A DNA stretch of 61,091 nt from a virus. Taxonomy: Duplodnaviria > Caudoviricetes. Below are positions 34,782 to 56,237 of the stretch, piece by piece. The position numbers and the translations under genes are program-made. Position 1 is the stretch's first letter. The number at the start of each line of letters is the position of its first letter. The notes under the pieces are model-generated. The model ran no database searches. It had not been told where the DNA came from and saw nothing but the letters and a program-made list of their open reading frames with translations. The stretch is taken from positions 1 through 61,091 of IMG/VR virus record IMGVR_UViG_3300043470_000556; one strand, given 5' to 3'.

Positions 34782-34784
34782 TTC

Positions 34785-34815: not shown

Positions 34816-34820
34816 GTCTT

Positions 34821-36464: not shown

Positions 36465-36495
36465 AAACAGTCCTTATTCTTACTAGAGTGAATAC

Positions 36496-36528
36496 AAAAA
36501 AGGCGACTCCACACAAGGTGGGGTCGCC
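36496..36528 (-). terminator. Intrinsic terminator-like hairpin upstream of phoH
   Basis: Minus strand ggcgaccccacc-ttgt-gtggagtcgcc followed by T6. Confidence 0.7.
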
Positions 36529-36601
36529 CTTTGTTACCGAGGAAGTTCGGTATCTGAAATTGGAATGGGGATACTATTTTTTAAACTCATACAGGTATTT
36601 A

Positions 36602-37144
36602 TTAAACTGCATCGCTCCACCACTCTGGAATAGGACGATTTTTCCACTTTGCCATAGTTTTTTTTGCGCCGATGTAATAGTTACGATACGACTGCAGGGA
36701 GTCGCCCTGCACCTTGTATTCGTCTGGCATAGCAGGTGTTGGTTGTGTCAGATAACCTACTGGAATATTTTTTGGTGGTTGTCGCAACCAGTATACTAGG
36801 CGATCGGTTGCATGAATCTTACCGTAGCGATGCGTATATTCTTGCAAAAGTTCCTGGAATAAACACATCAACCAATTGTAATTATTGTTGGACTGTCGCG
36901 CCCAAATAGCACTGGGGTGATTAATGTGTGATGCTTTGTAAAGCATATTTTCCATCTGATCATGTTCAAGTCGCCAACGCTTGATTCGACGCCCAGAAGA
37001 GGCATCAATATATTCTTTGCCGTCAAGCATGCGATGTGCTGTTGACAGTAATTGGGCATACTCTAAAATCATTTTAACAACGTGTTTATCATTGTGATAT
37101 GTAGCACAAGTTTTGACGTCGCGGTCAAGGTAAAAAATATTCAT
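36602..37144 (-). CDS. Pyrimidine-dimer DNA glycosylase / DenV-related protein
   Basis: Motif MNIFYLD.....CA..H.DKH.VKMILE.AQLLSTAH...H.NHPS..W.R...EYT.RY.K.H...AMPD. Confidence 0.75.
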   Translation of the reverse strand: MNIFYLDRDVKTCATYHNDKHVVKMILEYAQLLSTAHRMLDGKEYIDASSGRRIKRWRLEHDQMENMLYKASHINHPSAIWARQSNNNYNWLMCLFQELLQEYTHRYGKIHATDRLVYWLRQPPKNIPVGYLTQPTPAMPDEYKVQGDSLQSYRNYYIGAKKTMAKWKNRPIPEWWSDAV

Positions 37145-37150
37145 AATATA

Positions 37151-37438
37151 TCAGTTCTCAAGTTTAAAGGGAATTTCCTCAATCGACTTACGAATGCATT
37201 CGATATGCGCTTTCGTAGTATTAGAAATATACTCTGATTCAAGTGAAAAGTCAATACATTTTATGACATCGACTGGATCCATTTTGATCAGATCGTCAAT
37301 AATTACACGATTATCAGTTTCACCAAATGCGTTTACGCAGAATAAAACAACATCAATGTCCATGTCCGAATATAATGGTATTCGGTATAACCGCTTTCCG
37401 TTAACAAACTTATCAGGGAATTTTAGAATATCCGCCAT
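37151..37438 (-). CDS. Hypothetical protein
   Basis: ORF packed between its neighbours, same orientation. Confidence 0.7.
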   Translation of the reverse strand: MADILKFPDKFVNGKRLYRIPLYSDMDIDVVLFCVNAFGETDNRVIIDDLIKMDPVDVIKCIDFSLESEYISNTTKAHIECIRKSIEEIPFKLEN

Positions 37439-37442
37439 AATA

Positions 37443-37964
37443 CTATTTATTAAAATGCGTTGAAAAAACTAGATGAAGTCTGTTGGCAGAAATTGAAGCA
37501 TTTATCGCAGTATGTTTGACATTTGTTTGTAAACTATACAATCTACCAATATCTGGCATTCGTTCTACCATGTCATCTACAACAAAGAATGCATCGGCAT
37601 CAGTGATCAACGGTATGTGATACCGAATAGAATCAGGGTCAACATGGTAACTCAAGCATGTTATCGGCGTCATGTTCATAAATCTAATTCGATCTATCGT
37701 CAGGTTACCATTAGAATAGTTGTATATTTGATTCTCTAATTTTTTGATCAACGGGAAAATATGCTGCGTATAATCCTGTCTTTTGAGAGTATTCTGATCG
37801 CGCAGACTACCTGCTCCAAGTTGAAGTTTTTCTTCAAAACTTAGCGCCTCGTCACCTTCTCTATATTTGAGATTGTGTTGTTTCATTGCTGGTAATTCTG
37901 ACCATAGTTTAATATATGGCGCAGGATCTATAGTAAATTCTAATTCTTTAATATACCTTGACAT
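37443..37964 (-). CDS. 2OG-Fe(II) oxygenase (aspartyl/asparaginyl beta-hydroxylase-like)
   Basis: R.RFM...P...LSYHVD (HxD)...RYHIPLIT...HTA.N....R.HLV. Start adjusted to MSRYIK. Confidence 0.75.
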   Translation of the reverse strand: MSRYIKELEFTIDPAPYIKLWSELPAMKQHNLKYREGDEALSFEEKLQLGAGSLRDQNTLKRQDYTQHIFPLIKKLENQIYNYSNGNLTIDRIRFMNMTPITCLSYHVDPDSIRYHIPLITDADAFFVVDDMVERMPDIGRLYSLQTNVKHTAINASISANRLHLVFSTHFNK

Positions 37965-39372
37965 TATAAAGTCCCTCGAACATCTTAGCGTCCTTGGTAT
38001 CATTTACCATAGGAAACCCTTTGATGTTAAGACTAGTATTAAGCAACATTGGGCAACCTGTTTCTTCATACCAGCGTGACAACAATTCAAATAATCCTGG
38101 ATGCTGCTCTTTGTTTACAGTTTGGACGCGAGATGTGCCATCAACGTGAACGATAGCAGGGAACTCTGTAGGAAATTTACATCTTGCAGTAAACTGCATG
38201 TAAGGGGATACTTCAACTGGCATGTCAAAATACTCTGCTGCATATTGCTCAAGGATGACTGGTGCGAATGGTCTAAACTTTTGTCTGCGCTTGATTGCAT
38301 TTACTTTGTCCTTAATGTCTGGTCTAGATGGATCAGCGAGGAGACTTCGGTTACCAAATGCCCTCGGACCAAACTCTGCTCTTCCACTAGCAACTCCAAC
38401 TATACCCTCTTTACGCAAAGAAGTCAATAGATTTTCTACGGGATATTCGGTTTCAATATTCTCACCGAGATATGGACCTTGCCAGTTTAGTTTTCTGCGG
38501 TTGTTTGCAGCAATAGCACCAAGAGAACTACCAGCATCTCCTGGGTTAGGAATAATCCAGATATTTTTGAAGTATTTTTTAGCGATGTGATTTGCCGAGC
38601 AGTTAAGTGCGCAACCCCCTGATAACACTAGATTATTTTGTGCTGGATCATTCTTCTTTGCGCGATGTAGAAGTTTATCAAATTCTTCTTCATATATCTT
38701 TTGCGCCGATGCGGCAAGATCGTAGTGATCAGGATCTTCTTTTTTCATCCACCACTTACAACCACGATGTAGATTTACTCGCTCATAGAGTTCGCGCATA
38801 TCCCAATAGTGCTTGTCAGGATTACCATATGCCGCCATACCCATGAGGATATATTCATCTTCGTTTGGTTTCAACCCAACTCTGTCTGTTATAGCAGAAT
38901 AAAATAATCCAAGAGATTTCGGATAATCCATACTCCATTGTTTCTTCATAACATGTGCGTAACATGTCCAGATAGATGCCGTATCAAACTCACCGATAGC
39001 ATCAATTACTAGAGTGGTTGCTGATTGAAATGGAGAGGTATAGAAACCTGCTGCGGCATGCGACTCATGATGTGAAGCAAATTCGACTGGAACTTCGAGA
39101 CCGAATTCTTTTAGATACTGCCTTACGCTAAAGCGAATAATTCCTTGCCCCGAAAGTAGTCTGCGCATACCTCTGAGTTTTGGTTTTTCATACCAATGAA
39201 TCTTTTCTGGTTTACCAAACTCTAATGCCGCATTGATCAGATCGGCATTTAGATGCTTGTCATTTTTGATTCCGCTATACCGTTCTGCGTGCGAAGCAAA
39301 TAAAATTCGTTCACCCTGCACCACAGTAAGAGCAGCATCATGCGCTGCAGCAGATATACCCCATTCAATCAT
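37948..39372 (-). CDS. Carbamoyltransferase (NodU/CmcH/TobZ family)
   Basis: Motifs HDAA, ER.S..K, HH.SHAA, DAIGE, SLGL.Y, E..LMG.A.YG, GGCALN, GDAG..LG, EFGPRA.GNRS.LA, KRR..FRPFAP, H.DGT.R.QT and LNTSLN. Confidence 0.95.
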   Translation of the reverse strand: MIEWGISAAAHDAALTVVQGERILFASHAERYSGIKNDKHLNADLINAALEFGKPEKIHWYEKPKLRGMRRLLSGQGIIRFSVRQYLKEFGLEVPVEFASHHESHAAAGFYTSPFQSATTLVIDAIGEFDTASIWTCYAHVMKKQWSMDYPKSLGLFYSAITDRVGLKPNEDEYILMGMAAYGNPDKHYWDMRELYERVNLHRGCKWWMKKEDPDHYDLAASAQKIYEEEFDKLLHRAKKNDPAQNNLVLSGGCALNCSANHIAKKYFKNIWIIPNPGDAGSSLGAIAANNRRKLNWQGPYLGENIETEYPVENLLTSLRKEGIVGVASGRAEFGPRAFGNRSLLADPSRPDIKDKVNAIKRRQKFRPFAPVILEQYAAEYFDMPVEVSPYMQFTARCKFPTEFPAIVHVDGTSRVQTVNKEQHPGLFELLSRWYEETGCPMLLNTSLNIKGFPMVNDTKDAKMFEGLYNVKVY

Positions 39373-40703
39373 TTGTATAACCACTCCAGTTCTGGAAATG
39401 TTTCTTTGAAGTTCGTGCCGCGAGCAATATCCATTTTCGAATATTCTTCCATGAATATTAAGTAATCTTCTGTAGGATACTCAAAAAATTTAAAATCAGA
39501 CTGCTGCATCTTTCGCATATTTCTAATTTTACTCATTGCAGTTTTAATTTTTTTCTTCTTGTTAGATAACGCAGGAGTGCCATTCACAACACAAGACAAA
39601 TACCAATCTTCAAATTCAGTCAAACAATTATCAACATATTGCCAATGCTGCTCTGGCATATTAACAATACTTAAATGTGTTGGGTTGCGAAGAAGATTTT
39701 GAAACATGTATGATTCAAACAAAGTGGTATTACATAAACTTGTTTGGTAAATTCCACAATCAATAAATTCTTGCACAATTTCTTTCAACCGATGTATATT
39801 GAACGCACTCAGAACAGGAACATATACTAATTTTTGTTTTGCCCATCCGACAGATCTATTTACTATTTCGAATGAATCGTGTATTTTTTTAAGATTCTCT
39901 GAGATTTTGTTCCAATCTCCAGGCCAGCGAATATAATTAAATCGCTCACCGACTTCGTCGATACTCGCCATGATCATTACGCTTTTGAATTGTTTCCAAT
40001 ATTCTAAAACATCTTTACCACGATATGTTAGAGTGCTGCAATTAGTAGAATATACTAGAGTAACTTGATTTGCTCTACCGCATTCTATAAGTTTTTCTAG
40101 TGTATACCAATGGTATTTTGATATCATCGGTTCCCCACCTGCAAAATAGATATCTCTAACGCTATCCAAATTGTCATCAATAAGTTTAAATGCAATAGAG
40201 TCATCTTTTGGTTCTATAAACTTTGATTCCGTTTGAGGTCTGCCCAATTTTTCATTTAGATCATACCACTTAGAACTCAACCCATGTCCGCACGTAATAC
40301 ATGCTTGGTTGCATCTATTACTGAATCTGAAATCCATGTACTTTAATTTGTCTGTTGTCATTTCACCAGATGGTAGGAGATGCGAAATATAATGATCATA
40401 CTCATCCGCATAAACATTGTTTCTATGCGTCCTAGAACTTTCTGAAGCAAATTTTTCAGTATCATAACACCCAGAACAAATGGGATTTTCTACGCCATCT
40501 ATCATATTTTTTCTGAATTGCTTGTACTCTTCTCCATTCCAGATCTCATTCCATGAAGAAACTTTGTTTATGTTTCCTAGTGGTTTCTGTAGTGTATCGC
40601 CCACACAACATGGCATAACGTTACCATCTGGTGAAACGTATGTATGCAATAATCCCAACATACAAAATGAAGGATTTTTTTTGAGATTGTATTCTCTAGT
40701 CAT
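39369..40703 (-). CDS. Radical SAM protein with N-terminal twitch/SPASM-like domain
   Basis: CNQACITC motif, FAGGEP, and N-terminal C...PCC...CSGC. Confidence 0.9.
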   Translation of the reverse strand: MTREYNLKKNPSFCMLGLLHTYVSPDGNVMPCCVGDTLQKPLGNINKVSSWNEIWNGEEYKQFRKNMIDGVENPICSGCYDTEKFASESSRTHRNNVYADEYDHYISHLLPSGEMTTDKLKYMDFRFSNRCNQACITCGHGLSSKWYDLNEKLGRPQTESKFIEPKDDSIAFKLIDDNLDSVRDIYFAGGEPMISKYHWYTLEKLIECGRANQVTLVYSTNCSTLTYRGKDVLEYWKQFKSVMIMASIDEVGERFNYIRWPGDWNKISENLKKIHDSFEIVNRSVGWAKQKLVYVPVLSAFNIHRLKEIVQEFIDCGIYQTSLCNTTLFESYMFQNLLRNPTHLSIVNMPEQHWQYVDNCLTEFEDWYLSCVVNGTPALSNKKKKIKTAMSKIRNMRKMQQSDFKFFEYPTEDYLIFMEEYSKMDIARGTNFKETFPELEWLYK

Positions 40704-40794
40704 AGATGAACGGATCTAATTCCTGCAATTTTTTAATTTTTCTTTTGATTTTTCTATCTAGGAAAAACTGTCGTATAATAGCAATCAATTTCAT
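40696..40794 (-). CDS. 32-aa basic peptide ending DPFIYD
   Basis: Manual translation MKLIAIIRQFFLDRKIKRKIKKLQELDPFIYD. Overlaps both neighbours (TAATG upstream, ATGACTAG downstream). Confidence 0.7.
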   Translation of the reverse strand: MKLIAIIRQFFLDRKIKRKIKKLQELDPFIYD

Positions 40795-41588
40795 TATAGT
40801 ACACCTTTCGAAACTAATTCATCGTAGATTTTATCTGCGTAGATAATATGACTTTGCAGTTTTGGATGAGACCAAGTATGAGGTTCTAACTTATGTTCTT
40901 CCCGTATATTCTGAAATGCAAAGTCTGGAAGAAGTAAATTATCGAACTCGAAAGAATCTAACCATGGAAGTTTCTTCTTATATCCAGAGAAAAAGTTTTT
41001 CCATCCATCCAAAGAATGCACAGTCATTGTCAAGAACATTCTACCATTGAAATATTTCGTTGCCATGTCATCAAGGTGTTTTAAGTCTCGTATATACTGA
41101 TAAATTAAATTGACATCATTCACATAATCTACCATTAATGCATCATAAAGTTTGGGATCCCCCCAAGTTTCTCTAAAATTAAACACTTGGTTTACTTCAC
41201 TTACATTCTCTGTCAAATAGAAAAACCTATTGGGAGATGTGATTCCGACCAGAATCAAATCGGTTTCTTTTATACTTCCTTCGTGCATATCTCTTTGGAT
41301 TCTAAACATAACATTTGAGATATTAGAACCATTTACAGCTCTATTCGAACAGGGTATATTTACTTTTTTTGCTAGTTGACTCGGCCATGCAAGAGTTTTA
41401 CCATATGCTTCTGCTTCTCTTGCCAAACCACCATATACTTTTTGATACGCTTTATCACCCAACCCATGTTCTGCTTTCAATCGATCAACTTCATCGTGGG
41501 TTTTACCCAAAATCTCTGCATCACCAAGTTCTTGTCCCGCAGTAAAACTGCATCCATATGCAATTATTTTGTTAAAATTGGATACCAT
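40794..41588 (-). CDS. SGNH-like protein
   Basis: Motif AYGCSFTAG...WP..LA...N.A..G.N...R, with C-terminal HP...H. Confidence 0.65.
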   Translation of the reverse strand: MVSNFNKIIAYGCSFTAGQELGDAEILGKTHDEVDRLKAEHGLGDKAYQKVYGGLAREAEAYGKTLAWPSQLAKKVNIPCSNRAVNGSNISNVMFRIQRDMHEGSIKETDLILVGITSPNRFFYLTENVSEVNQVFNFRETWGDPKLYDALMVDYVNDVNLIYQYIRDLKHLDDMATKYFNGRMFLTMTVHSLDGWKNFFSGYKKKLPWLDSFEFDNLLLPDFAFQNIREEHKLEPHTWSHPKLQSHIIYADKIYDELVSKGVL

Positions 41589-42718
41589 TCTGCAAAACTT
41601 TCTTTAAAATAATTATTCCTATACTTATCATGCTTCTCTGTAATAGATAGCATCAAATTAAATTCATCCGGATTGTGCACAGAAGTATTTAACATGTTTG
41701 TTATGTTAGTCAGTTTATCTGAGTAATCTAACAACCGCTTAGATACTAGTGGTTTTAAATCTTCGGGAATATTAGTAATACTAAATTGTGTTGGGTGAAA
41801 CAACATATTATAATAAATTCCGATATTCGGATAATGTTCTCTAACAAACATATCAAACTCCACAACATCCCAAATATTATATATGCTAACAGTATAACAA
41901 AAATCTATTCGAATATGATCATTTTGCTTAGACAAGTTGGAATACTTCTCAATAACATCCAGTGCAGTATTCCACTTTCCAGGATATCTCATGTATTCAA
42001 ATTTCTCGCCGATCCCATCTATGGAAAGAGAGATATTTACTTTTTTGAAATTCTTGAGAGCAGTTTCCTGCTTGCTATTCAGATACATTGTTGCGTTAGT
42101 GTTAAAATGGATTTCTTGATCAGTAGAATAACCATCAAGAACACACTTATCGAGAATTTCCCAAGATCTTTCTACTAGTAATGGTTCGCCACCATAAAAA
42201 TCAATAACACTACATTGTGGAATCCATTCTTCCAATGTATTCCAAAAATCTGTATTCTCGGCAGAATAGATTTGGCGTATGTTTTTAAATTTTTGCATAA
42301 ACGCATTTTTAGGTACATGCGAATTGTTTACATCATACCACTCTGTCACCCAAGAACTGCTTATTTCTGGATTGCATGTTCGACACTTTAGATTACAAGT
42401 ATTTCCTAATTTCAAATCTAAAATTTGTGGAGTTTCTTTAATCTGCAGAGTTCTAGTGTTTTCTCGTTCTCGTTTACTTTCTCTACCATGGTGTTCTTCA
42501 GACCAACAAACTTCACAAGTTGAATTTTCAATACCATTTTCTAGATCTTGTAATAGTTTTTTTCTGGCGTCAGAATTCCAGATTTCAGTTAATGTATTTG
42601 TAGATAGATTATATTCCTTGCCTGTGTCATCTGCAAATGGTTTTGCCAGACAACAAGGTCTAACTCTACCAACAGTATCAACTTCTAATCCGCAAGATGC
42701 ATGCAGGCAGGTTTTCAT
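41564..42718 (-). CDS. Radical SAM protein with N-terminal twitch/SPASM-like domain
   Basis: CNLKCRTC, YGGEP, SIDG...Y.RYP..W, and N-terminal C...PCC...CEVC. Confidence 0.9.
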   Translation of the reverse strand: MKTCLHASCGLEVDTVGRVRPCCLAKPFADDTGKEYNLSTNTLTEIWNSDARKKLLQDLENGIENSTCEVCWSEEHHGRESKRERENTRTLQIKETPQILDLKLGNTCNLKCRTCNPEISSSWVTEWYDVNNSHVPKNAFMQKFKNIRQIYSAENTDFWNTLEEWIPQCSVIDFYGGEPLLVERSWEILDKCVLDGYSTDQEIHFNTNATMYLNSKQETALKNFKKVNISLSIDGIGEKFEYMRYPGKWNTALDVIEKYSNLSKQNDHIRIDFCYTVSIYNIWDVVEFDMFVREHYPNIGIYYNMLFHPTQFSITNIPEDLKPLVSKRLLDYSDKLTNITNMLNTSVHNPDEFNLMLSITEKHDKYRNNYFKESFAEWYPILTK

Positions 42719-43917
42719 ATTTGCTTTGCCCACGGATGAGTTTCAAATACGTCTTGGTTTCTAATCTTGTCTAACAACAGTTGCTTTTGAACAAACTTCT
42801 TTTGTAGATCCGAATTATGCAAGTTAGACTTGTTGCTTTCCAGATAGTTAATGGTATTATTAATTTCTACTACATTAATTTTTATCTGTGGTTTGATATT
42901 TTTGAATTCTTGTAGATAGTACTCATAGATTTCTTCTGGCATAACATCTGCTTGTAGAAAATCAGGTCTATTAACAGGAATTACGCCCATAGAAAGTCCA
43001 AGATCTTCGCACCAAAGAAATAGATCACGAAGAGAATTATTGGATATTGTTAAATTCTGTAATGTTGGAGTAACTCCGCATTCTATATTTCTAAGATCTT
43101 TAATTTCTGCCATCAACAATTTCATATTTGATTCAATAGTTTCCCATTTCGCGGGATTACGAATATACTCATATTGCTTACCAACACCATCGATGCTAAC
43201 ATTAAGTTGAACAAATCTGAATTTTTTCCACATATCAATGAACTTTTTGCCAAGAAAAATACCATTTGTATTATATACCAATTTAATCTTGGATGCAGAT
43301 CCAGTTTCTAACAAATAGGTAAGCAGTTCTTCGTGGGCATCAATAATAAGAGGTTCTCCACCAATCATATAGATTTCCTGTAGTGTGTCAAGATGCGGAG
43401 AAACAACATCACGCATACTCACAGCATCAACCCACTCAGTGCTGTCATAATCCATTTCGTAATACGATCTAGATTCAGGGTGCTTTTGTGTTTCTTTACC
43501 AATCAGAGAACTACTGAATGGTGCACACATTCTACATCTCAGGTTACACTTTTTACCAAGGTCAAATTCAATTCTGTGAATGCCCAAAGGAGTCTCATCA
43601 TGGATCCTCTCGCGCAACTCTGGATATCTCTGATTAATAGATTCCCTAAAACTCTTCATACCAGAGTCTTCCATTTTCCAACAACGACCGCACATTGGAT
43701 GACGTTCGCCCACCAACATAGATTCACGCAATTCTTTGTGAGTATGTGTGTTTAGAAAACTGTCGAGGGTGTAATCTTTCATTTCAGTTATATTTGCTCG
43801 AACACCCTTCTCGCTCTCAATATCAGCATGCAGTGCATTACAACAGGGTCGTAACCCTCCATTAGATCCTACGCTCAGTAGAATCCATGGATACACACAA
43901 ACTGTATTATTTTGCAT
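42715..43917 (-). CDS. Radical SAM protein with N-terminal twitch/SPASM-like domain
   Basis: CNLRCRMC, IGGEP, TNG, SIDG, and N-terminal C..PW...PCC...CGRC. Confidence 0.9.
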   Translation of the reverse strand: MQNNTVCVYPWILLSVGSNGGLRPCCNALHADIESEKGVRANITEMKDYTLDSFLNTHTHKELRESMLVGERHPMCGRCWKMEDSGMKSFRESINQRYPELRERIHDETPLGIHRIEFDLGKKCNLRCRMCAPFSSSLIGKETQKHPESRSYYEMDYDSTEWVDAVSMRDVVSPHLDTLQEIYMIGGEPLIIDAHEELLTYLLETGSASKIKLVYNTNGIFLGKKFIDMWKKFRFVQLNVSIDGVGKQYEYIRNPAKWETIESNMKLLMAEIKDLRNIECGVTPTLQNLTISNNSLRDLFLWCEDLGLSMGVIPVNRPDFLQADVMPEEIYEYYLQEFKNIKPQIKINVVEINNTINYLESNKSNLHNSDLQKKFVQKQLLLDKIRNQDVFETHPWAKQI

Positions 43918-45196
43918 TAGATTTTTCCCGTTGTTCGTGTTCTTGCTGTTTTACCAACCCTCTGCTTGTTGTTCCAAGTTCGCCTTGGTCTAAGTGATTG
44001 TATTCATCACCACAACATGCAGTGCATTGGTGACTTCTCATCGAACTTCCCTTTTGGAAACTCAATGGGAGAAATCTTTGATACAATGGAGAACTTACAA
44101 TATCCTGAATAGAATTTTTCTTCAACGATATCGAATCCATACCACCGTTTAGTTCTATCATCTGCAAAGATGTGTCATTGGGATTCCAATGTTCTGAATT
44201 CGCTCTCCACAATTCACCACCAAGGAAACAGCAAGGATAAACATTACCTGCGCCGTCAACAAAAATTTCGTTCAGTTGTTGATACTTCGATTTCTTTGCG
44301 CGACAAACAATTCCCAAAGAATTGTGTGGAATAGAAATAGATGTGTTGTTTTCGTTGTCATAGACATCTATGTCTGTTTTTCCAGGTTTGGGTATCATTC
44401 TATTAAATTCATCATTAGTAATATACTGAGGAATTATACCGAACGATCTTTTAAATTCAACAGAATTCTCATGTTGATATATTGGGTTTCTTGGTTGCCG
44501 TAATGTATGGGTTTTTACTCCATTGTCCATAACGTCATACAGTCCGCGACCTTCATCGTCATACCGATGCCAGCGAGTTGTCTTTTTAATATTAAAATAT
44601 TGGAAACCTAGATCTTTTGCGATTTGTTTCGCTTGCTCGACCTGATGCTCATTGTGTTCAAATACAATATAATCCCACTTAGCAATACCACCTGCAGCAG
44701 TATATGCCTTCATGTTTTCATGGATTTTTTCAAAACTGGTATTTCTGCGGTATAAATGATTCGTATCCCATAGACCATCAACTGAAAAGATAACATAATC
44801 TTGTCTGGTACCATCTGGTCCGCCATTCATGATTTTCGCTAGTTCTTCCCACCATGACTTTGGTCTTGCACTACCATTGGTATGAATTACTAATCCTACC
44901 TTATCATTACATTCGCGAATATATTTGTAGATTTCTAACGTGTCTCTCGCGGCAAGAGGATCCCCATAGTTACCACAGGCATAAACTCTGCGCATTTGTT
45001 GCAGAAATTCTTTTGGAAACCAACTTTTAAATTGATCCAATGTAATTTCTGTCATAGGCAATCGTGGATTAATCTCGGATCCATTTTTAATATGCCTTGG
45101 ACACATAGGACATGCTGCATTACATCGAGTTGTTAACTCTAAATGCATCCCATTTAAATCGCGATACGACTCGTATAGCGGTTCAATTTGCATCAT
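43907..45196 (-). CDS. Radical SAM protein with C-terminal SPASM/twitch-like domain
   Basis: CNAACPMC, CGNYGDP, HTNG, FSVDG...YR, and C-terminal G.VYPCC...C...C. Confidence 0.9.
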   Translation of the reverse strand: MMQIEPLYESYRDLNGMHLELTTRCNAACPMCPRHIKNGSEINPRLPMTEITLDQFKSWFPKEFLQQMRRVYACGNYGDPLAARDTLEIYKYIRECNDKVGLVIHTNGSARPKSWWEELAKIMNGGPDGTRQDYVIFSVDGLWDTNHLYRRNTSFEKIHENMKAYTAAGGIAKWDYIVFEHNEHQVEQAKQIAKDLGFQYFNIKKTTRWHRYDDEGRGLYDVMDNGVKTHTLRQPRNPIYQHENSVEFKRSFGIIPQYITNDEFNRMIPKPGKTDIDVYDNENNTSISIPHNSLGIVCRAKKSKYQQLNEIFVDGAGNVYPCCFLGGELWRANSEHWNPNDTSLQMIELNGGMDSISLKKNSIQDIVSSPLYQRFLPLSFQKGSSMRSHQCTACCGDEYNHLDQGELGTTSRGLVKQQEHEQREKSNAK

Positions 45197-46595
45197 TAAT
45201 TTCCTTACACATGTAATAGAAGTCTTTATATTCAGGAAACAGTTCTAGAAGACCCAATCCAACAGATCTCTTATCGTATTCAGTAAAGAATTTGTAAAAA
45301 TCCTTTCTTCCGTTCTCGATTAACTTCTCATCAATTCGCGGACCACCCTGATAAAAGTAATTACGAACACGCTTGAGTTTTTCGTATTCTTGCTCTTGGA
45401 ATCCATGGACCAATCCTGGTTCGGCAATATTATTTTGAATGTATTGAAGATCAGAATCAATATACCGACCAAATTCTTCTTTCGGTAGAAGATTGATCAT
45501 CCAGTGTGGTGGTTCCTTGAGATAAGGAGTATCAAACATAATACGATTTTGGTATGGGTTGACGTTCCACTTCTTGCGCAGTTCCAGAATTTTCTCTAGG
45601 AACGGACGGAAAGATGCAACACAAAGAATATTATATGTGCACATAATGCTAATTGAAACATCAGGAACTGTCTCAAGAAACGTCTCAACATTCTTCAACC
45701 AAAGATCCTGATTTAAACCACGACGCATATACTCTGCTTGTGGACCCCATGCTTCCAACGAGGTATACATCTTAAAGTCTTTGATTTTTTTCTTATCAAG
45801 AAGATTCTTCACAGAGTCAGAAAGACGCTGCACTCGATTATTGCTTACACCCATATTACTGTTGATGTTCAATTCTAGGTGCTGCGTGTCATCACCTGAT
45901 TCAATTTCCTTAAACAACTTCATTGTGTTGGGATTGATCAATGCTTCACCGCCTGTTAGACGAAGAACACGGAGATCTTTCTTTAGATCAGGCCACCATT
46001 TCCAGAATGCATCAACATAGGGATTGTCTTCGTCATCTTTATATACCTTCGTAGTCTTAAGATAATCGATACCATACTGATTGTAACTAATGTCATAGTT
46101 ACCATGATCACGAATTTCTTGTTCCCAAAGAGATGATGCTTGAGGGCAACAGTAACCGCACTTAAAGTTGCAACCATTGCCAAAACTTACTTCTAAGAAA
46201 TATGGATTATAATCCTGATCCCACGGGAGACTTTTAACCATCTCAGTTTCTGTCTTGGCATCAATCCAAGTACTGGCATTGTGGAACATTCGATCGCTGA
46301 AGTTTTCTCCAGGAAGGTTTTCTACGTTCCAACAGTAATAACATTCTTCCGGACGTCCGCCCTCGAGCATGATCTTGCGCTGCTGTTTCTTCCATTTTGT
46401 GTTATGTAGTGCAGAAGGATTCTCTGCAATTTCTTCCAATGGAATGCGTTGTGGGCGAGGATGATAGCAACTGTGGTTGTCGCCCATGTGCAAATACAAT
46501 GTTTCATGGCGCCATTTCTGCAAACAGAATCCATTCCCAACTGTATTGAGAGTGTCCCGAACTTCGCGGACTTTGTCGAGATAACTATTGCTCAT
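45183..46595 (-). CDS. Radical SAM protein with N-terminal Cys domain
   Basis: CNFKCGYC, LTGGEA, and N-terminal FC..KW...HSCYHP...CYYCW. Paralogue of 46585-48234. Confidence 0.9.
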   Translation of the reverse strand: MSNSYLDKVREVRDTLNTVGNGFCLQKWRHETLYLHMGDNHSCYHPRPQRIPLEEIAENPSALHNTKWKKQQRKIMLEGGRPEECYYCWNVENLPGENFSDRMFHNASTWIDAKTETEMVKSLPWDQDYNPYFLEVSFGNGCNFKCGYCCPQASSLWEQEIRDHGNYDISYNQYGIDYLKTTKVYKDDEDNPYVDAFWKWWPDLKKDLRVLRLTGGEALINPNTMKLFKEIESGDDTQHLELNINSNMGVSNNRVQRLSDSVKNLLDKKKIKDFKMYTSLEAWGPQAEYMRRGLNQDLWLKNVETFLETVPDVSISIMCTYNILCVASFRPFLEKILELRKKWNVNPYQNRIMFDTPYLKEPPHWMINLLPKEEFGRYIDSDLQYIQNNIAEPGLVHGFQEQEYEKLKRVRNYFYQGGPRIDEKLIENGRKDFYKFFTEYDKRSVGLGLLELFPEYKDFYYMCKEINDAN

Positions 46596-48234
46596 TTTTG
46601 CATCTTTCATAAAAATTAATTAATTCGGGGAAGGTTTCTTTGAAATTTGTATTTCTTCGCCTATCCAACTCGTCAACATATTGAGCAAATCGAATCATAC
46701 TAGTATTTAGTCGACTCTGCTCCATTCCTTGTCGCATTATATCTAGGTCTCGTCTAACTTTGTCGATTTCATACTGCTTAAATCCACGGAAACTGGTGGA
46801 GTAATCATCTCCTTGGATATTTTTTTCCATAAACTCCACGCTACTTTCCATCATAGCAATCATCTCAGAATCCGCCATCTTTATACTCAACCAACTTGGA
46901 GTATGGAGAATGGGTATATCAAACCAAATTCTTTGACTGCGAGGTTTAACTATAGGTTTCTGCCCAGGAACATCAAAGACAATATCATTTTGTTTGTCGT
47001 ATGCGAATTCTTCGCGTAAGTCAAGAATCCATTCTAGGAATTTTTGTAACTTTGGGATACTCAGAAGATTGAATGTATTAATGATTGTAATATTAGTGCA
47101 GTTCGTCTCTCTCAAAAATGTTCTAACGTTCGAATCTAAGATATCAAAATTCATCCCAGTTCGAATATACTCAGCTTGCGGACCTACGCTATCACAACTT
47201 ACAAACAATGAAAAGTGCTTCATCACAGGAGCAGTACATTCAAACTCATAAGAAAATCCGCCATCTTCTTTACTTTTTCCGGATTCTGTTAGTTCGGGAA
47301 TGTTTTCTGGTTCTATTGATGGTAACTCGCTATGGTAAAGACGCTTATTCTTATCACCAATGATATAGTGTTGCCACTCTTTCCACTCAGTCCCATTTTT
47401 AGGATCGGGAACAAAACATTTTACCGTATGGTGTGCTGTTTCCATTTTCTTTACTTGAGTCAGAAACTTGTCAAACAATTCTTGCTTAGGTGGACACAAA
47501 TTGCTGGTAATACTCAATTCAAGATCTGGATTGGGGTGATGATAAACGTAATCCAATACTTTAAATGTATTGTTATCCATTAGAGGTTCGCCACCAGTCA
47601 TTCTAAAAATCTTTAGCGTTTTATATAATTCAGGCCACCATTTCCAGAATGCTTCTACGTATGGATTTTCTTTCTGCGAAACTTTCTTTGGCATCAATCC
47701 ATAGTCAGTTAATGCACCAAGATGATTATGTGCTGCATCCTTCAGAATATATGCACCATATTTTTCTGCTTCTTCTTGCCAAGAGGTACTAAGATGCGGG
47801 GAACAATATACACATTTAAAATTGCACGCCTGATTGAAATTTACTTCAACATACGCTGGTGTGATTGTTTTGTCTAGGGATTTATTAGTTGCAATTTTTT
47901 CAAAGTCGGGTGAATTCCACCACTCACTGCTACGATAGTGTCGATCACTCGTGTGACCTGCATCTTCGATACGCCAACAATACGAACATCCATCAGGACG
48001 TTCGCCTTTACGCATTTTAGCACGTTCTTCAATTTTCTGTGGGGTATTGTGGAGCAATCCTGGATTTTCCGACAATCCCTCTAGAGGAATATCGTGCGTC
48101 GGCGGATGATAGCAACTATGCGTCTTACCATTAGTAAGATGCATACTCACCATATTCCATTTTGCCAAACAGAATGTAGAACTTACTGTTTCAAGTTTCT
48201 GCTTGGTTTCTTCTGCCGAGTCTCTATAATCCAT
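46585..48234 (-). CDS. Radical SAM protein with N-terminal Cys domain
   Basis: CNFKCVYC, MTGGEP, and N-terminal FCLAKW...HSCYHP...CSYCW. Confidence 0.9.
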   Translation of the reverse strand: MDYRDSAEETKQKLETVSSTFCLAKWNMVSMHLTNGKTHSCYHPPTHDIPLEGLSENPGLLHNTPQKIEERAKMRKGERPDGCSYCWRIEDAGHTSDRHYRSSEWWNSPDFEKIATNKSLDKTITPAYVEVNFNQACNFKCVYCSPHLSTSWQEEAEKYGAYILKDAAHNHLGALTDYGLMPKKVSQKENPYVEAFWKWWPELYKTLKIFRMTGGEPLMDNNTFKVLDYVYHHPNPDLELSITSNLCPPKQELFDKFLTQVKKMETAHHTVKCFVPDPKNGTEWKEWQHYIIGDKNKRLYHSELPSIEPENIPELTESGKSKEDGGFSYEFECTAPVMKHFSLFVSCDSVGPQAEYIRTGMNFDILDSNVRTFLRETNCTNITIINTFNLLSIPKLQKFLEWILDLREEFAYDKQNDIVFDVPGQKPIVKPRSQRIWFDIPILHTPSWLSIKMADSEMIAMMESSVEFMEKNIQGDDYSTSFRGFKQYEIDKVRRDLDIMRQGMEQSRLNTSMIRFAQYVDELDRRRNTNFKETFPELINFYERCKNEQ

Positions 48235-48815
48235 TATTTAAAACCAACTGCCATGTATCTATAGAAATGCCCACACTTCAACATACCAGCGTATTCTGGG
48301 GTTTTAATCCTGTTGATTGTTAAGAATTCTTCTAGACTATCGGCAATGCGGACATGCTCAGGATTTTCTAGATTATTTCCTTGGACGATATATTTAGTCG
48401 TACTAGGAATAGAGTCCCACCAAGCATCATATACTTCTTGCGTAACATGTTCGCTACTTGTATTGATCACCAGATCGGGATGCACGTTGATCGGCATACC
48501 GTTTTTCATGTCATGTTGACGGAAGACAATATCATGATAACACTCATCGATAGCAGTGAATACATGCCTACAACTAGAATCTAAGTCAGTGGTTAGAATT
48601 CGTGCATCAGGAAACTTGTGTGCAATAAACTGCGCAAGGATTCCATACCATCCACCGAAAATTACGATAGATCGATCCATAGGAGTTACATGTTCGAGTA
48701 ACCACTTCTTACTTTCGATCTGACTTGGCCAGAAGTTCTCGGAGAATCTGTATGCATTCTCTGGATTATTCCGGATGTATTCCATCCAATTTAATACAAC
48801 ATCAAAATTAACCAC
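48234..48815 (-). CDS. Class I SAM-dependent methyltransferase-like protein
   Basis: Gly-rich motif IFGGWYG, acidic D.D, and DLVINTSSEH. Confidence 0.65.
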   Translation of the reverse strand: MVNFDVVLNWMEYIRNNPENAYRFSENFWPSQIESKKWLLEHVTPMDRSIVIFGGWYGILAQFIAHKFPDARILTTDLDSSCRHVFTAIDECYHDIVFRQHDMKNGMPINVHPDLVINTSSEHVTQEVYDAWWDSIPSTTKYIVQGNNLENPEHVRIADSLEEFLTINRIKTPEYAGMLKCGHFYRYMAVGFK

Positions 48816-49209
48816 GGCGCATCCTCGCTACTTCAATTGCTTGTTCTTCGTTGATGATAGGAACCGCATTTGATTTATGCATGGTCGCGATACCTTTAAT
48901 CAACGTTCCAGTATATGTATTCTCCTTGCGAGCAAAGGTTACGCCGAGTCCGTCGCCTGAAGGATACTTCTGACGATGGTCGCTGACTTCATACTTGGGG
49001 AGAGGTGTGCCACGCAACTTGGGTTTATAATTGCCTTGGCGATATTGCACATACTCGTCGAAGGTCTTAGTCTTACAACCAATCCGTTTCATCTGCTTGT
49101 TGTACTCAACCCAGTCCTGGGAATACTTCGCAGTTACGCCTTTGTTTGTGGTCTTGCGCTTCTTCGTATTAGTGGTGGTGTACGCATGAGACATCAGGTG
49201 CATAGTCAT
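48808..49209 (-). CDS. Conserved hypothetical phage protein
   Basis: C-terminal YTG....GIATMHKSNAVP motif, recurrent in T4-like phages. Confidence 0.7.
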   Translation of the reverse strand: MTMHLMSHAYTTTNTKKRKTTNKGVTAKYSQDWVEYNKQMKRIGCKTKTFDEYVQYRQGNYKPKLRGTPLPKYEVSDHRQKYPSGDGLGVTFARKENTYTGTLIKGIATMHKSNAVPIINEEQAIEVARMRRG

Positions 49210-49239
49210 AACAGAATCCTTTTTCTAACTCAACATACT

Positions 49240-49268
49240 CTTATACCCTATTCGAGCAAAATTGTCAA
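49240..49268 (-). promoter_or_regulatory. Sigma70-like promoter TTGACA-17-TATAAG (leftward, toward the rSAM cluster)
   Basis: -35 at 49268-49263 and -10 at 49245-49240. Confidence 0.65.
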
Positions 49269-49292
49269 GCCATAAAAAATTAAAAAAAGAAC

Positions 49293-49321
49293 TTGACTTT
49301 TCCCATGTTTCGAGGTATAGT
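49293..49321 (+). promoter_or_regulatory. Sigma70-like promoter TTGACT-17-TATAGT with upstream A-rich tract
   Basis: -35 at 49293-49298 and -10 at 49316-49321; divergent from the previous promoter. Confidence 0.7.
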
Positions 49322-49345
49322 GATTATATTGAAATGGAGAATGTG

Positions 49346-49543
49346 ATGGTTATTGACAATATTGTGAGTCGTGAAGAAGAACTCCTAGAACTCCTAGGAA
49401 TTCCGTGGAATGGTTGGGGATACGAACTTGAAGAGTTCGCCCAAATAAACTTCGAACTCGAAGCGAACGGTGTTCCCACTTATAAATCATTCGAGGAATA
49501 TCTCGAAGGTCGTCTTGAATATAAGAAAAGGATTGCAGCATAA
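49346..49543 (+). CDS. Small acidic hypothetical (early-type) protein
   Basis: RBS ggag then ATG at 49346, downstream of the promoter. The track's start at 49262 lies upstream of the promoter. Confidence 0.65.
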   Translation: MVIDNIVSREEELLELLGIPWNGWGYELEEFAQINFELEANGVPTYKSFEEYLEGRLEYKKRIAA

Positions 49544-49758
49544 TGGCATATATTACTACTGAAGTCGAAGTTTATATGGACGACTTTGATGATCGAGAAC
49601 TGATCGAAGAACTCACAGATCGAGGTTACTACGTTAGCAAATCGAGTAGCGATATTCCTGTCGCTCAGAATCTTTATGATGCATGGGTCTACAAAACTGG
49701 CAATTTTGAGGATCTATTTCGCGAATTTTGCCGAGCAACAATTGGGAGAAGTTTTTAA
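49543..49758 (+). CDS. Small acidic hypothetical protein
   Basis: TAATG coupling on both sides. Confidence 0.7.
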   Translation: MAYITTEVEVYMDDFDDRELIEELTDRGYYVSKSSSDIPVAQNLYDAWVYKTGNFEDLFREFCRATIGRSF

Positions 49759-49928: not shown

Positions 49929-50051
49929 GCACATCAATTCACCAACAAGAACTAGATACGCATTTCGACAAGATCGAGAGCGAAATGACACAACAGGAAG
50001 TAACAGAAACTCCTATTGTGTTTTTCCGATTCGGCGAGGATAATCCACTTC

Positions 50052-56227: not shown

Positions 56228-56237
56228 GGTCATCTCC

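Follow-up and report, generated by a model that had tools for sequence, protein, structure and literature searches.

Among described phages, Pelagimyophage genomes contain LPS-type auxiliary genes, including a UDP-glucose 6-dehydrogenase gene, and variable "radical SAM cassettes", according to the available part of the source (PMC7029224). A phage carbamoyltransferase of the superfamily that includes CmT478 of the present study acts on 5hmC in DNA and on 5hmdCTP; in the available part of that report, the enzyme is compared with TobZ, and its relatives on modified contigs are accompanied by thymidylate-synthase homologues and by MazG-like pyrophosphohydrolase and deaminase genes (PMC8670742). 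In the searched literature, we found no characterisation of the NF033640 radical SAM family and no described substrate for any of its members.

In the present study, we analysed a 61,091-nt stretch of DNA (the window) from a freshwater T4-like phage and found an operon dominated by six radical SAM enzymes. It exemplifies a hypervariable type of island, a "methyltransferase plus radical-SAM array", that is carried by uncultured aquatic T4-like and other phages and is widespread yet unstudied.

Organization of the cluster and its promoter

The features of the locus are listed in Table 1. The first-pass annotation described a biosynthetic cluster of eleven co-oriented genes at 37443–48815, all with overlapping stops and starts. 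The cluster is real: co-oriented genes, including six for radical SAM enzymes, a carbamoyltransferase, and a hydroxylase-family protein, were confirmed, and metal and catalytic motifs are intact in all six radical SAM enzymes, CmT478, and Hyd186. However, ORF analysis identified ten genes in this interval, and the number is eleven only when g133, which lies outside it, is counted. Overlaps of 1–56 nt were found at eight of the nine junctions within the interval; the SGNH264/rS444 junction, ahead of rS444, is a 90-nt gap and the sole intergenic gap of the cluster.

Table 1. Features of the radical SAM cluster and its upstream region
Feature	Position	Strand	Description
g133	48808..49209	-	first operon gene; no Pfam match
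MT193	48234..48815	-	class-I SAM-methyltransferase-fold protein; island marker gene
rS549	46585..48234	-	N-terminal-twitch radical SAM enzyme with ~90-aa insertion
rS475	45183..46610	-	N-terminal-twitch radical SAM enzyme
rS429	43907..45196	-	radical SAM core N-terminal, SPASM/twitch-like Cys domain C-terminal
rS400	42715..43917	-	N-terminal-twitch radical SAM enzyme; modelled representative
rS389	41564..42733	-	N-terminal-twitch radical SAM enzyme
SGNH264	40794..41588	-	SGNH/GDSL-hydrolase-like, by motif only
rS444	39369..40703	-	N-terminal-twitch radical SAM enzyme
CmT478	37948..39384	-	ATP/carbamoyl-phosphate-dependent O-carbamoyltransferase, TobZ/NodU/CmcH type
Hyd186	37443..38003	-	small cupin-type Fe(II)/2-oxoglutarate oxygenase, Asp/Asn beta-hydroxylase family
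promoter	49240..49268	-	sigma-70-like TTGACA-17 nt-TATAAG; divergent intergenic region, upstream of g133

The sigma70-like promoter proposed upstream is present. Direct reading located its hexamers at 49268–49263 and 49245–49240, and both are kept in all five of the related loci that were aligned, which differ in the spacer. A generic consensus scan, which requires T at position 6 of the -10 hexamer, did not list the site because G occupies that position here. Across the region, promoter-like sites were not enriched relative to shuffles (55 found versus 48.4 ± 6.9). We regard the site as a predicted, conserved operon promoter of the sigma-70 type.

The first gene product, g133, is basic and variable at its N-terminus and carries a strongly conserved C-terminal block of approximately 35 aa (YTGTLIKGIATMHKSNAVP...). 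An HMM of this block detected g133 in the related loci L009–L011 and in 22 of the 80 best viral loci, all closer T4-like relatives, and in none of the 80 bacterial loci. Thus, g133 is lineage-specific, not a universal component of the island.

Radical SAM and tailoring enzymes

Exactly one CxxxCxxC motif is present in each of the six radical SAM ORFs, at residue 137 in rS549 (CNFKCVYC), 147 in rS475 (CNFKCGYC), 25 in rS429, 124 in rS400, 113 in rS389, and 131 in rS444. An auxiliary Cys cluster in each, as originally noted, was corroborated by a motif scan and SPASM matches. In five of the six enzymes, it is an N-terminal four-Cys set (C7, C25/26, C76, and C79 in rS400; Cys 22, 41, 83, and 86 in rS549), and Pfam SPASM matches this region in three (residues 7–80; 9–77 in rS389, 28.9 bits; 14–80 in rS444, 52.2 bits). 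Scores of these five against NCBIfam NF033640 (cut-off 170 bits) range from 284 to 328 bits: rS549 304.1, with the match split into two stretches, rS475 284.1, rS400 312.4, rS389 288.5, and rS444 328.1. The equivalent Cys set of rS429 is C-terminal (C298, C322/323, C391, and C394), with SPASM matching residues 309–394 (27.1 bits) and Pfam Radical_SAM at 39.1 bits; NF033640 gave only 44.1 bits, under the cut-off. By its domain order, rS429 is the non-permuted counterpart of the other five. The nearest paralogue of rS475 in the window is rS549, and identity between the two subtypes is 31–42%.

Structural matches of the rS400 AF2 model (pLDDT 95.6) are confined to the radical SAM core (residues ~112–365), and the fold matches are tied (SkfB, Z 14.0; BlsE, 13.9; PFL-AE, 13.5; anSME, 13.5; viperin, 13.3). 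SkfB is a RiPP enzyme and BlsE a nucleoside-sugar enzyme, both covering the core only; judged on this model, structural neighbours do not discriminate the substrate class.

MT193 had no curated family above cut-off in Pfam and other family searches, and its earlier description as methyltransferase-like is retained through the predicted fold (AF2, pLDDT 95.5). The nearest Foldseek neighbours were small-molecule O-methyltransferases, which methylate hydroxyls (TMq 0.52–0.68), and GGW.G, D77/D79, and N118-T119-x-x-E122-H123 are invariant. MT193 is a probable O-methyltransferase.

The carbamoyltransferase was verified by both of its Pfam domains (Carbam_trans_N, 134.4 bits; Carbam_trans_C, 176.1 bits). 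CmT478 also matches phrog_1601 (E 5e-102) and, among PDB sequences, NovN, GdmN, and TobZ (E 1e-34 to 1e-47), and has an HHESH motif at residue 105. Enzymes of the TobZ/NodU type transfer carbamoyl groups to hydroxyls of sugars and of other compounds, as the PDB titles of these matches also indicate. Hyd186 matches the hydroxylase family PF05118 above its cut-off (29.6 versus 22.6 bits) and has H120-x-D122 and downstream His residues. It is missing from L009, L010, and L011, metagenome contigs join across it, and it is an optional cassette. SGNH264 had no Pfam, NCBIfam, PHROG, or PDB-sequence match; G12-C13-S14, G87, and H241-P242, invariant across seven homologues, are the sole basis for its SGNH-like label. 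Its language-model neighbours are viral clusters, one with Lipase_GDSL in 17%.

A variable island in viruses and related arrays in bacteria

At E ≤ 1e-3, the MT193 family comprises 1,664 representatives, and in IMG/VR at least 570 places were confirmed to hold a family member. The best 80 of these places formed the viral locus set, and the following counts are on the 79 with an MT ORF. At least one radical SAM gene lies within ±10 kb of this ORF in 74 loci, within three genes of it in 71, and immediately adjacent in 48, and each locus has 0–13 radical SAM genes (1–13 in the 74 carrying any). The genes are, therefore, not shuffled independently without co-occurrence, and no cofactor-pathway model came near its cut-off. 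L009 and L010 share the gene order of the window at 39–92% protein identity (65–92% for the six radical SAM genes, MT193, and CmT478; 39% for SGNH264), and L011 and L012 have the same methyltransferase gene followed by different radical SAM sets. Homologues of rS429 occur in 37 loci, and 46 have members of a third radical SAM family of ~326 aa. The carbamoyltransferase, hydroxylase, and SGNH-like genes are optional cassettes because they are present in only 15, 5, and 8 loci, respectively. The initial view of one pathway needs to be narrowed: the genes look co-transcribed and combine twitch/SPASM-type radical SAM enzymes with tailoring enzymes, but they are not one fixed pathway because only the methyltransferase-like gene and a variable radical SAM array are conserved across loci.

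Arrays of these gene families are also present in bacterial chromosomes of 1–3.7 Mb. Among the 80 best bacterial loci, 36 are from Bdellovibrionota, four have MT193-like genes, and six have a carbamoyltransferase; radical-SAM-like places per locus reach 10 in L036 and 11 in L048.

Among 130 proteins chosen to represent the co-occurring viral families, Pfam identified UDP-glucose/GDP-mannose dehydrogenase in 8, NAD epimerase/GDP-mannose-4,6-dehydratase in 5, and DegT/EryC1 sugar aminotransferase in 3, together with the Asp/Asn-hydroxylase family (9, the top recognisable neighbour), the fatty-acid-desaturase family (5), and QueC-like PP-loop proteins (4). The neighbourhood is enriched in nucleotide-sugar genes, and most of the co-located genes that can be recognised encode nucleotide-sugar enzymes, with most co-occurring families lacking any annotation and the sugar signal being a minority of families. 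A full-length epimerase/dehydratase family (E 9e-45) occurs in 12 viral loci. An NDP-sugar-dehydrogenase-like gene lies directly behind MT in seven; its products are short (~248 aa, model positions 73–288 of 413) and may lack the nucleotide-sugar-binding end. Among 95 bacterial neighbours, Pfam detected GT2 in two, NeuB in one, and a CMP-sugar cytidylyltransferase in one; a SIS-domain family is present in three bacterial loci.

We searched for fusions with the 150 best of the 1,664 MT193-family representatives, 146 of which were newly returned; of these 146, 44 were at least 300 aa. In five of the 44, a 227-aa family (A10) is fused to the MT domain. A10 occurs in 22 viral loci and is absent from the 61-kb window, the cluster of which encodes no glycosyltransferase. 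Precomputed GT2-type Pfam matches are present on 8 of 120 listed A10 homologues, and two are named glycosyltransferase by their source, suggesting that A10 is a glycosyltransferase domain of a divergent GT2-like type. No full phage-encoded route to glycosylation is evident: among three island-bearing viral records at least 90% complete, A10 and GT8 were found in none and GT2 in one.

Proposed substrate class and function

We tentatively favour a role of the island in tailoring a carbohydrate-type substrate, which would be a nucleotide-sugar, a small molecule derived from a sugar, or a glycan, because its recognisable neighbours are mostly nucleotide-sugar enzymes and the MT domain is fused to a GT2-like domain. 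We rank this above the modification of peptides or proteins, of DNA or nucleotides, and of lipids, in that order. It is unlikely that the array edits a RiPP-like peptide or a protein of phage or host origin (cross-links, epimerisation, or C-methyl-type changes), with the Asp/Asn-hydroxylase-family oxygenase, methyltransferase, and carbamoyltransferase as tailoring enzymes. Peptide pathways with multiple radical SAM enzymes exist, PF05118 is named after protein Asp/Asn hydroxylation, sub-threshold NCBIfam matches are mainly peptide maturases, and RiPP maturases are among the best core matches (8vpo and SkfB by profile; SkfB, CteB, and SuiB by fold). However, the maturase matches concern the shared core only and are tied with non-peptide enzymes, Pfam and NCBIfam found a RiPP-recognition or PqqD-like domain in none of the six radical SAM enzymes, and the overlapping genes leave no space for a small precursor ORF. 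The variable N-terminal part and very conserved C-terminal block of g133 could represent a follower-type recognition sequence, but its restriction to closer T4-like relatives and absence from bacterial loci argue against this. The nucleotide-sugar genes and GT2-like fusion would also be left unexplained. With no conserved precursor peptide or recognition domain seen, the virion-protein modification and phage RiPP put forward in the first-pass annotation lost ground, while its surface glycan would best fit the neighbourhood.

Somewhat more doubtful still is the elaboration of a DNA base, an attached sugar, or free nucleotides. In this phage, it would follow the conversion of 5mC to 5hmC by TET and the action of the TET-associated glycosyltransferase, and CmT478 would carbamoylate 5hmC. 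The window encodes Tet_JBP (60589–61089, partial) and TAGT (59780–60589), QueC-like PP-loop proteins recur across islands, the best NCBIfam match of the ~326-aa radical SAM family is prokaryotic viperin (58.6 bits versus a cut-off of 180), and the available part of PMC8670742 describes 5hmC/5hmdCTP carbamoylation by a related phage enzyme. However, TET and TAGT lie ~11 kb from the cluster, separated from it by two unrelated features, a curli-like module and a CHASE2 cyclase gene, and Tet_JBP is present in one of five island-bearing viral records and missing in two of the three at least 90% complete; the link to TET/TAGT suggested at first was not borne out. Moreover, few islands (15 of 79) have the carbamoyltransferase, the arrays sit in bacterial chromosomes too, the cluster is without thymidylate-synthase, MazG-like, or deaminase genes, and the window, ~35% of the genome, has no thymidylate-synthase homologue. 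We consider it very improbable that radical SAM, desaturase-family, and LpxO-like hydroxylase-family proteins remodel the acyl chains of a membrane lipid or lipid A. PF05118, which includes the lipid A hydroxylase LpxO, leads the recognisable neighbours, desaturase-family proteins occur in seven viral and three bacterial loci, and tetraether lipid synthases gave weak sub-threshold matches and a structural match (GDGT-MAS, Z 11.7). However, the lipid-synthase similarities are far under cut-off, the window has no desaturase-family member, Pfam and NCBIfam found no acyl-carrier, acyltransferase, or lipid A gene in the window cluster, and the carbamoyltransferase, epimerase/dehydratase, DegT, and GT2-like fusion are not lipid enzymes.

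For the favoured carbohydrate tailoring, we infer the individual reactions as follows. Host RNA polymerase would read the operon from the conserved sigma-70-type promoter. In each radical SAM paralogue, the [4Fe-4S] cluster of CxxxCxxC and SAM would generate a 5'-deoxyadenosyl radical that takes H from a specific substrate C-H, with the single auxiliary twitch-type cluster handling the electron. The outcome may be oxidation, epimerisation, deoxygenation, decarboxylation, or alteration of a C-C bond, with each paralogue acting at its own position. MT193 would then O-methylate a hydroxyl, with the invariant Glu-His as the base, CmT478 would O-carbamoylate a hydroxyl via carbamoyl-adenylate, Hyd186 would perform a hydroxylation step, and the SGNH-like protein may add or remove an acyl ester. 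The likely role of the island would be to diversify a cell-surface or other glycoconjugate during infection.

Organization of the cluster and its surroundings

The first-pass annotation described the cluster as eleven co-oriented, overlapping genes, including six radical SAM genes, and this observation holds with minor corrections. All genes are co-oriented; however, the interval is filled by ten minus-strand genes, and the eleventh, the 133-aa gene g133, lies just upstream. Adjacent genes overlap by 1–56 nt at 8 of the 9 internal junctions. At the ninth, a gap of 90 nt separates SGNH264 (an SGNH-like gene) from rS444 (a radical SAM gene). The features with coordinates are summarized in the table. 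The intergenic stretch at 49262-49330 keeps AAAAGTCAAG, the plus-strand TTGACT -35 element of a divergent promoter-like site, and the same element is kept in the related viral loci L009, L011, L105, and L106.

Positions of the cluster, neighboring features, and bacterial QueC-like genes
Feature	Position	Strand	Description
gp5-like protein	21405-22409	-	gp5 OB domain plus glycoside hydrolase family 19 (chitinase class I-type), replacing the T4-type lysozyme
TnsA-like endonuclease N-terminal domain protein	26291-26749	+	81 bits; between baseplate and tail genes
tmRNA	34428-34819	-	ARAGORN tag ANDNVAFALAA; Rfam permuted tmRNA 89.1 bits, alphaproteobacterial tmRNA 56.4 bits
Radical SAM cluster	37443-48815	-	Ten genes
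g133	48808-49209	-	Upstream gene
Promoter	49268-49240	-	TTGACA-17-TATAAG; both hexamers kept in five related loci, spacer varies
Divergent promoter-like site	49293-49321	+	TTGACT-17-TATAGT; faces small plus-strand genes
Curli-like module	50052-56687	-	CHASE2 plus cyclase (683 aa), curlin-repeat-like (484 aa, weak match), FecR-domain, unannotated (273 aa), CsgG, CsgF
TET end locus	58624-61089	-	Partial Tet_JBP oxygenase 68 bits, TET-associated glycosyltransferase 45 bits, DruA-like 47 bits
QueC-like paralogues, bacterial	L036:1225-1995, L036:5231-6010, L036:12493-13251, L022:8000-8803, L022:8831-9592, and others		~255 aa

The 61,091-bp IMG/VR viral record, of which the window is the entirety, is classed as linear and ~35% complete. 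It encodes T4-type gp32, gp59, baseplate, gp6/gp8-like, and gp5-like proteins. The gp32 protein shares 56.6% identity with its counterpart in Methylophilales phage Melnitz, 54.5% with that in Pelagibacter phage HTVC008M, and ~53% with those in cyanomyophages. Since a permuted, alphaproteobacterial-type tmRNA is encoded, there is a hint of an alphaproteobacterial host. The TnsA-like protein may be a nuclease of the homing or mobile type.

Upstream of the cluster, two to three small plus-strand ORFs are followed by the CHASE2-adenylate/guanylate cyclase gene of the curli-like module. In at least 8 related viral loci, the methyltransferase gene is likewise preceded by a module with this gene order. 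The CsgG, CsgF, FecR, and curlin-like genes beside the array are the 'curli operon' of pelagimyophages (PMC7029224); the accessible part of that paper makes no mention of a sensor cyclase at the module. The Tet_JBP, TET-associated glycosyltransferase, and DruA-like genes look like a separate DNA-modification locus. Downstream of the cluster are a small unannotated gene, a DenV-like glycosylase (weak match), PhoH, a PD-(D/E)XK nuclease, and the tmRNA.

Enzymes encoded by the cluster

The CxxxCxxC motif, which ligates the [4Fe-4S] cluster that binds SAM, was reported earlier for all six radical SAM proteins and was confirmed, with exactly one copy in each. Four of the proteins exceeded the cut-off of PF04055 (29.5 bits), with scores of 39.1, 42.2, 32.4, and 34.2. 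Although rS475 (28.7) and rS549 (21.2) fell below this cut-off, both passed the more specific model NF033640 ('twitch domain-containing radical SAM protein', cut-off 170 bits), which defines by sequence a subfamily catalogued by NCBI. Five of the six proteins are members (rS549 304.1, rS475 284.1, rS400 312.4, rS389 288.5, and rS444 328.1 bits). They align end to end, with an insertion of ~90 aa in rS549. The sixth, rS429, scored 44.1 bits and is not a member.

The NF033640 members have in common an N-terminal C...(P)CC...CxxC set that precedes the CNxxCxxC core. Pfam SPASM matched the N-terminal 70–80 residues of three proteins (7-80, 9-77, and 14-80; model positions 1-67 of 67), ahead of the core. 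However, the seven-Cys motif of SPASM domains, which have two auxiliary clusters, was not found in this domain; approximately four auxiliary Cys are conserved across 18–48 sequences, at rS400 positions 25, 76, 79, and usually 7. The pattern is that of a putative twitch-like, single-cluster domain. In rS429, the core comes first, and the C-terminal Cys set (C298, CC322/323, and C391xxC394) follows the same C...CC...CxxC pattern as the N-terminal set of the other enzymes (C7, CC25/26, and C76xxC79). By our reading, rS429 is the probable non-permuted counterpart of the other five. The mirrored patterns suggest that one and the same auxiliary domain may have been moved or permuted when the N-twitch family arose. 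The window paralogues are only 20–24% identical to rS400, whereas orthologues in L009 are 65–92% identical. The paralogues are therefore old, and they presumably differ in specificity.

A radical SAM structure model (pLDDT 95.6) matched SkfB, BlsE, PFL-AE, anSME, viperin, CteB, SuiB, and MoaA approximately equally (Z 12.8–14.0; Foldseek, VIA-align), over the core only. Since peptide, sugar, and nucleotide enzymes match this evenly, the structure picks no substrate class. Among the sugar-type enzymes, the fold matches were BlsE (Z 13.9, rmsd 3.7, 214 residues), DesII (Z 11.6), and AprD4 (Z 9.2). These enzymes share the radical SAM core with the cluster proteins, some of them have a single auxiliary-cluster domain, and their chemistry is of the kind proposed for the cluster. 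However, their auxiliary domain follows the core rather than preceding it, identity is 10–17%, and the likeness is no higher than that to peptide maturases. BtrN is another twitch/SPASM radical SAM enzyme that acts on a sugar or nucleoside-sugar substrate. The sugar twitch/SPASM enzymes work singly in their pathways, in contrast to the arrays of 5–13 paralogues found here. Searches of the available literature found no described substrate for NF033640 members and no description of such arrays. They also returned nothing relevant on SPASM radical SAM proteins of Bdellovibrio or on phage twitch radical SAM proteins with a carbamoyltransferase.

The marker gene of the island encodes MT193, which is predicted to adopt a class-I SAM-dependent methyltransferase fold. 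Its AF2 model (pLDDT 95.5) gave at least 500 PDB structure matches at E<=1e-3, and the 40 listed were all methyltransferases. The closest were small-molecule O-methyltransferases (TMq 0.52–0.68). In sequence, no Pfam methyltransferase family reached its threshold for MT193, which belongs to no curated family. PDB sequence and profile searches gave no credible match for MT193 (family A5), the SGNH-like family A7, the unannotated island families A8 and A9, the GT2-like 227-aa family A10, or the long fusion protein P0342. The GGW.G motif and D77/D79 of MT193 are invariant. Similar to COMT/monolignol OMT, PigF, RedM, and SibL, MT193 has a Rossmann-type SAM fold, and an invariant Glu-His follows strand 4. 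Small-molecule O-methyltransferases carry their catalytic base after strand 4, and it is a His in the plant enzymes. Unlike these ~350-aa enzymes, MT193 has only 193 aa, lacks a dimerization or cap domain, and is 12–18% identical to them.

The MT193 family comprises 1,664 representatives at E<=1e-3. The best 150 of these included 146 newly returned sequences, 44 of which were at least 300 aa long, and 5 of the 44 fuse one to three copies of A10 to the methyltransferase domain. A10 was found in 22 viral loci. Of 8,000 candidates scored against it, at least 7,114 proved to be homologues, mostly tandem duplications of ~530 aa without Pfam annotation. Among the 120 homologues listed (P0387-P0506), 8 had a GT2-type Pfam match and 2 were named glycosyltransferase by their source.

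CmT478 is clearly a predicted O-carbamoyltransferase of the TobZ/NodU/CmcH type. It matches Carbam_trans_N (134.4 bits, cut-off 24) and Carbam_trans_C (176.1 bits, cut-off 27), contains HHESH at residue 105, an instance of the HHxxH motif of these enzymes, and has PDB sequence matches of E 1e-34 to 1e-47. However, it is shorter than the solved enzymes (478 versus 576–702 aa), and its score for the NodU equivalog NF041651 (147.6 bits) is far below the cut-off of 1000. Hyd186 is assigned by sequence to the Asp/Asn beta-hydroxylase family (PF05118, 29.6 bits, cut-off 22.6), and the HxD...H triad is kept (H120-V-D122 and His 164/177/183). SGNH264 had no Pfam, NCBIfam, PHROG, or PDB-sequence match. 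Its SGNH-like label is a putative one from the GCS, G, and HP motifs: of the SGNH blocks I (GxS), II (G), III (GxN), and V (DxxH), the invariant G12-C13-S14, G87, and H241-P242 fit blocks I, II, and V, but the Asp of block V is not conserved.

Conservation and turnover of the islands

Scanning IMG/VR with the MT193 family profile gave at least 570 confirmed places (of 600 pattern matches), and the best 80 loci were analyzed. A methyltransferase ORF was present in 79 of these. At least one radical SAM gene occurred in 74 of the 79 loci, within three genes of the methyltransferase gene in 71 and adjacent to it in 48; a carbamoyltransferase was found in 15, an SGNH264 homologue in 8, and a Hyd186 homologue in 5. 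Near-duplicates among the viral loci mean that these counts overstate independence. The number of radical SAM genes per locus ranged between 0 and 13.

Related loci illustrate this variability. L009 and L010 keep the gene order with 39–92% protein identity (65–92% for all but SGNH264, at 39%) and lack Hyd186. L011 keeps g133, MT193, rS444, and CmT478, and its middle part consists of two other N-twitch genes and unannotated genes. In L012, an MT193 homologue (39% identity) is followed by approximately eight N-twitch genes and then PhoH. The cluster is a conserved unit, but not a fixed eleven-gene pathway. The earlier interpretation is partly supported.

We also considered a fixed partner radical SAM gene beside the methyltransferase gene and rejected it, as the next gene varied among the 77 loci tallied (unannotated 28, rS475-like 12, rS429-like 12, rS400-like 11, rS549-like 7, rS389-like 3, Hyd186-like 2, and other radical SAM 2).

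Isolate phages yielded little. Among 50,697 phage records, megablast of the cluster gave no match, and tblastn found no MT193 homologue. With rS444, tblastn found only single genes of 22–26% identity in 17 records, namely KVP40-like Vibrio phages and one marine virus fragment. PHROGs offered only a 'radical SAM domain-containing protein' family and a carbamoyltransferase family.

Among the closest described systems are the variable regions of pelagimyophages, which contain radical SAM cassettes, LPS genes, and the curli operon (PMC7029224). The window phage is likewise T4-like, with CsgG/CsgF, FecR-like, and curlin-like genes beside its array. That paper only mentions the 'radical SAM cassettes', which differ between two close genomes. 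It also states that radical SAM, LPS, and curli genes are missing from its freshwater SAR11 myophage genomes, yet DNA of the window phage appeared mostly in lake and river runs.

The stretch at 36000-50500 was wholly or partly present in 20 of 24 listed public runs, and at least half of the sampled words were found in 19. The positive runs span 18 studies, two of which are possible sources, and are mostly labeled lake-water or riverine metagenome. In runs X20 and X12, contig depth was far lower on the radical SAM array than on the flanking MT193, CmT478, and cyclase genes; a drop in depth does not equal absence. In the RNA-library run X20, contigs lay on rS429, with 3 other letters in 270, and on rS475, with 3 in 266; a further contig was ~94% identical across g133-MT193. 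This is not proof of transcription. In X12, one contig bridges Hyd186 by joining 37151 to 37999 through 343 other letters, and similar joints across Hyd186 occurred in X3 and X20. These joints agree with the gain and loss of cassettes. Joints inside the array with sides of 21–30 letters were left out as possible paralogue artifacts.

Bacterial relatives were found at 242 confirmed places in a genome collection, of which the best 80 were kept; 36 of these 80 loci belong to Bdellovibrionota-type taxa. Several are on contigs of 0.9–3.7 Mb, and their genes are therefore chromosomal. Within the best 80, ten radical-SAM-like places were present in L036 and eleven in L048. The same 80 loci contained rS429-like genes, MT193-like genes in 4, and a carbamoyltransferase in 6. 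SIS-domain and desaturase families were found among the bacterial family representatives, along with a QueC-like PP-loop family that occurred repeatedly. The QueC-like paralogues (QueC 23 bits) are interleaved with radical SAM genes in the Bdellovibrionota islands and are up to 58% identical within and between loci.

Substrate class and significance

Most families co-located with the islands have no annotation. The annotated viral neighbors, counted by loci, include a third radical SAM family of ~326 aa (46), rS429-like genes (37), a second SGNH-like family (13), full-length NAD epimerase/GDP-mannose-4,6-dehydratase (12), PF05118 (9), NDP-sugar-dehydrogenase-like genes directly behind the methyltransferase gene (7), and a desaturase family (7). 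Pfam searches of 130 viral family representatives gave PF05118 (9), UDP-glucose/GDP-mannose dehydrogenase (8), epimerase/dehydratase (5), fatty-acid desaturase (5), QueC-like (4), and DegT aminotransferase (3), as well as evident flanking genes (adenylosuccinate synthetase, IMPDH/GMP reductase-type, and amidase). Among 95 ORFs neighboring 12 bacterial loci, Pfam identified 14 further radical SAM proteins, 3 B12-binding radical SAM proteins, 2 GT2, 2 PF05118, 1 NeuB, and 1 CMP-sugar cytidylyltransferase-type protein.

A carbohydrate-type substrate is suggested by the combination of sugar enzymes among the few annotated neighbors, the O-methyltransferase-like fold, the O-carbamoyltransferase, the SGNH-like proteins, and the glycosyltransferase-methyltransferase fusion. 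We tentatively consider radical tailoring of a sugar or glycan to be the best explanation, while giving it somewhat less than an even chance. Against it, the window cluster contains no glycosyltransferase, nor does the window encode A10. Three island-bearing viral records have a completeness of at least 90%; neither A10 nor GT8 was found in any of them, and GT2 was found in one. Furthermore, the dehydrogenase-like neighbors are truncated relative to UDP-glucose dehydrogenase. Modification of peptides or proteins, which the first-pass annotation also listed, appears unlikely. Over the core, the RiPP maturases SkfB, CteB, SuiB, and TigE/8vpo give the best sequence-profile and fold matches; however, these matches tie with non-peptide enzymes, the auxiliary domain is permuted in the cluster enzymes, and neither a recognition domain nor a precursor peptide gene was seen in the cluster, although the tools used could have missed them. 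The gene g133 occurs only in close relatives, which led us to reject it as a universal precursor or substrate, and this lineage restriction also speaks against a peptide pathway.

Modification of nucleic acids or nucleotides would accommodate the carbamoyltransferase, as a characterized phage enzyme of this class acts on 5hmC, and TET-linked DNA hypermodification had been listed as a candidate role of the cluster. The link to TET is weak. The TET locus is not adjacent but ~11 kb away, with unrelated modules between, and Tet_JBP occurred in 1 of 5 island-bearing records; among the 3 with a completeness of at least 90%, 2 lacked it. According to PMC8670742, the 5hmC carbamoyltransferase sits with thymidylate-synthase-type and deaminase genes, whereas CmT478 sits in a radical SAM array; the thymidylate synthase family PF00303, sought as a sign of a dCMP-hydroxymethylase homologue, had no match in the window, which represents ~35% of the genome. 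We regard nucleic acids or nucleotides as a quite improbable substrate. A role in lipid modification is suggested only by the desaturase and PF05118 hydroxylase-family neighbors, the latter belonging to the family that includes LpxO, and seems very improbable. Some other function accounts for the remainder.

Returning to sugar or glycan tailoring, we speculate, with considerable doubt, that the islands form a so far unrecognized class of combinatorial 'radical glycan-editing' systems, in which arrays of permuted twitch enzymes act with a dedicated O-methyltransferase. Rapid turnover of cassettes would then vary an exotic sugar, carried either by the cell surface or by 5hmC-glycosylated phage DNA, as part of an arms race, and the system would be common to aquatic phages and predatory Bdellovibrionota.

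The superfamilies of the parts are already known, the N-twitch subfamily is catalogued by NCBI, and 'radical SAM cassettes' are mentioned in PMC7029224. What is new is an auxiliary tailoring island made almost entirely of radical SAM paralogues. Its novelty follows because we found no paper in the available literature on the substrate or the arrays apart from that mention, and no MT193 homologue in isolate phages among the 50,697 records. The known sugar-editing radical SAM enzymes are few and act singly, whereas a single domain-permuted, uncharacterized family forms arrays of up to 13 genes in these islands. The marker methyltransferase family is large, with 1,664 representative clusters and at least 570 viral loci. 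The ten-gene operon provides a concrete, cloneable route to a first function for NF033640. Should sugars or glycans indeed be what the arrays edit, the islands would represent a large reservoir of new C-H functionalizing chemistry and would give abundant phages of freshwater and the sea a new way to alter a glycoconjugate while they infect.
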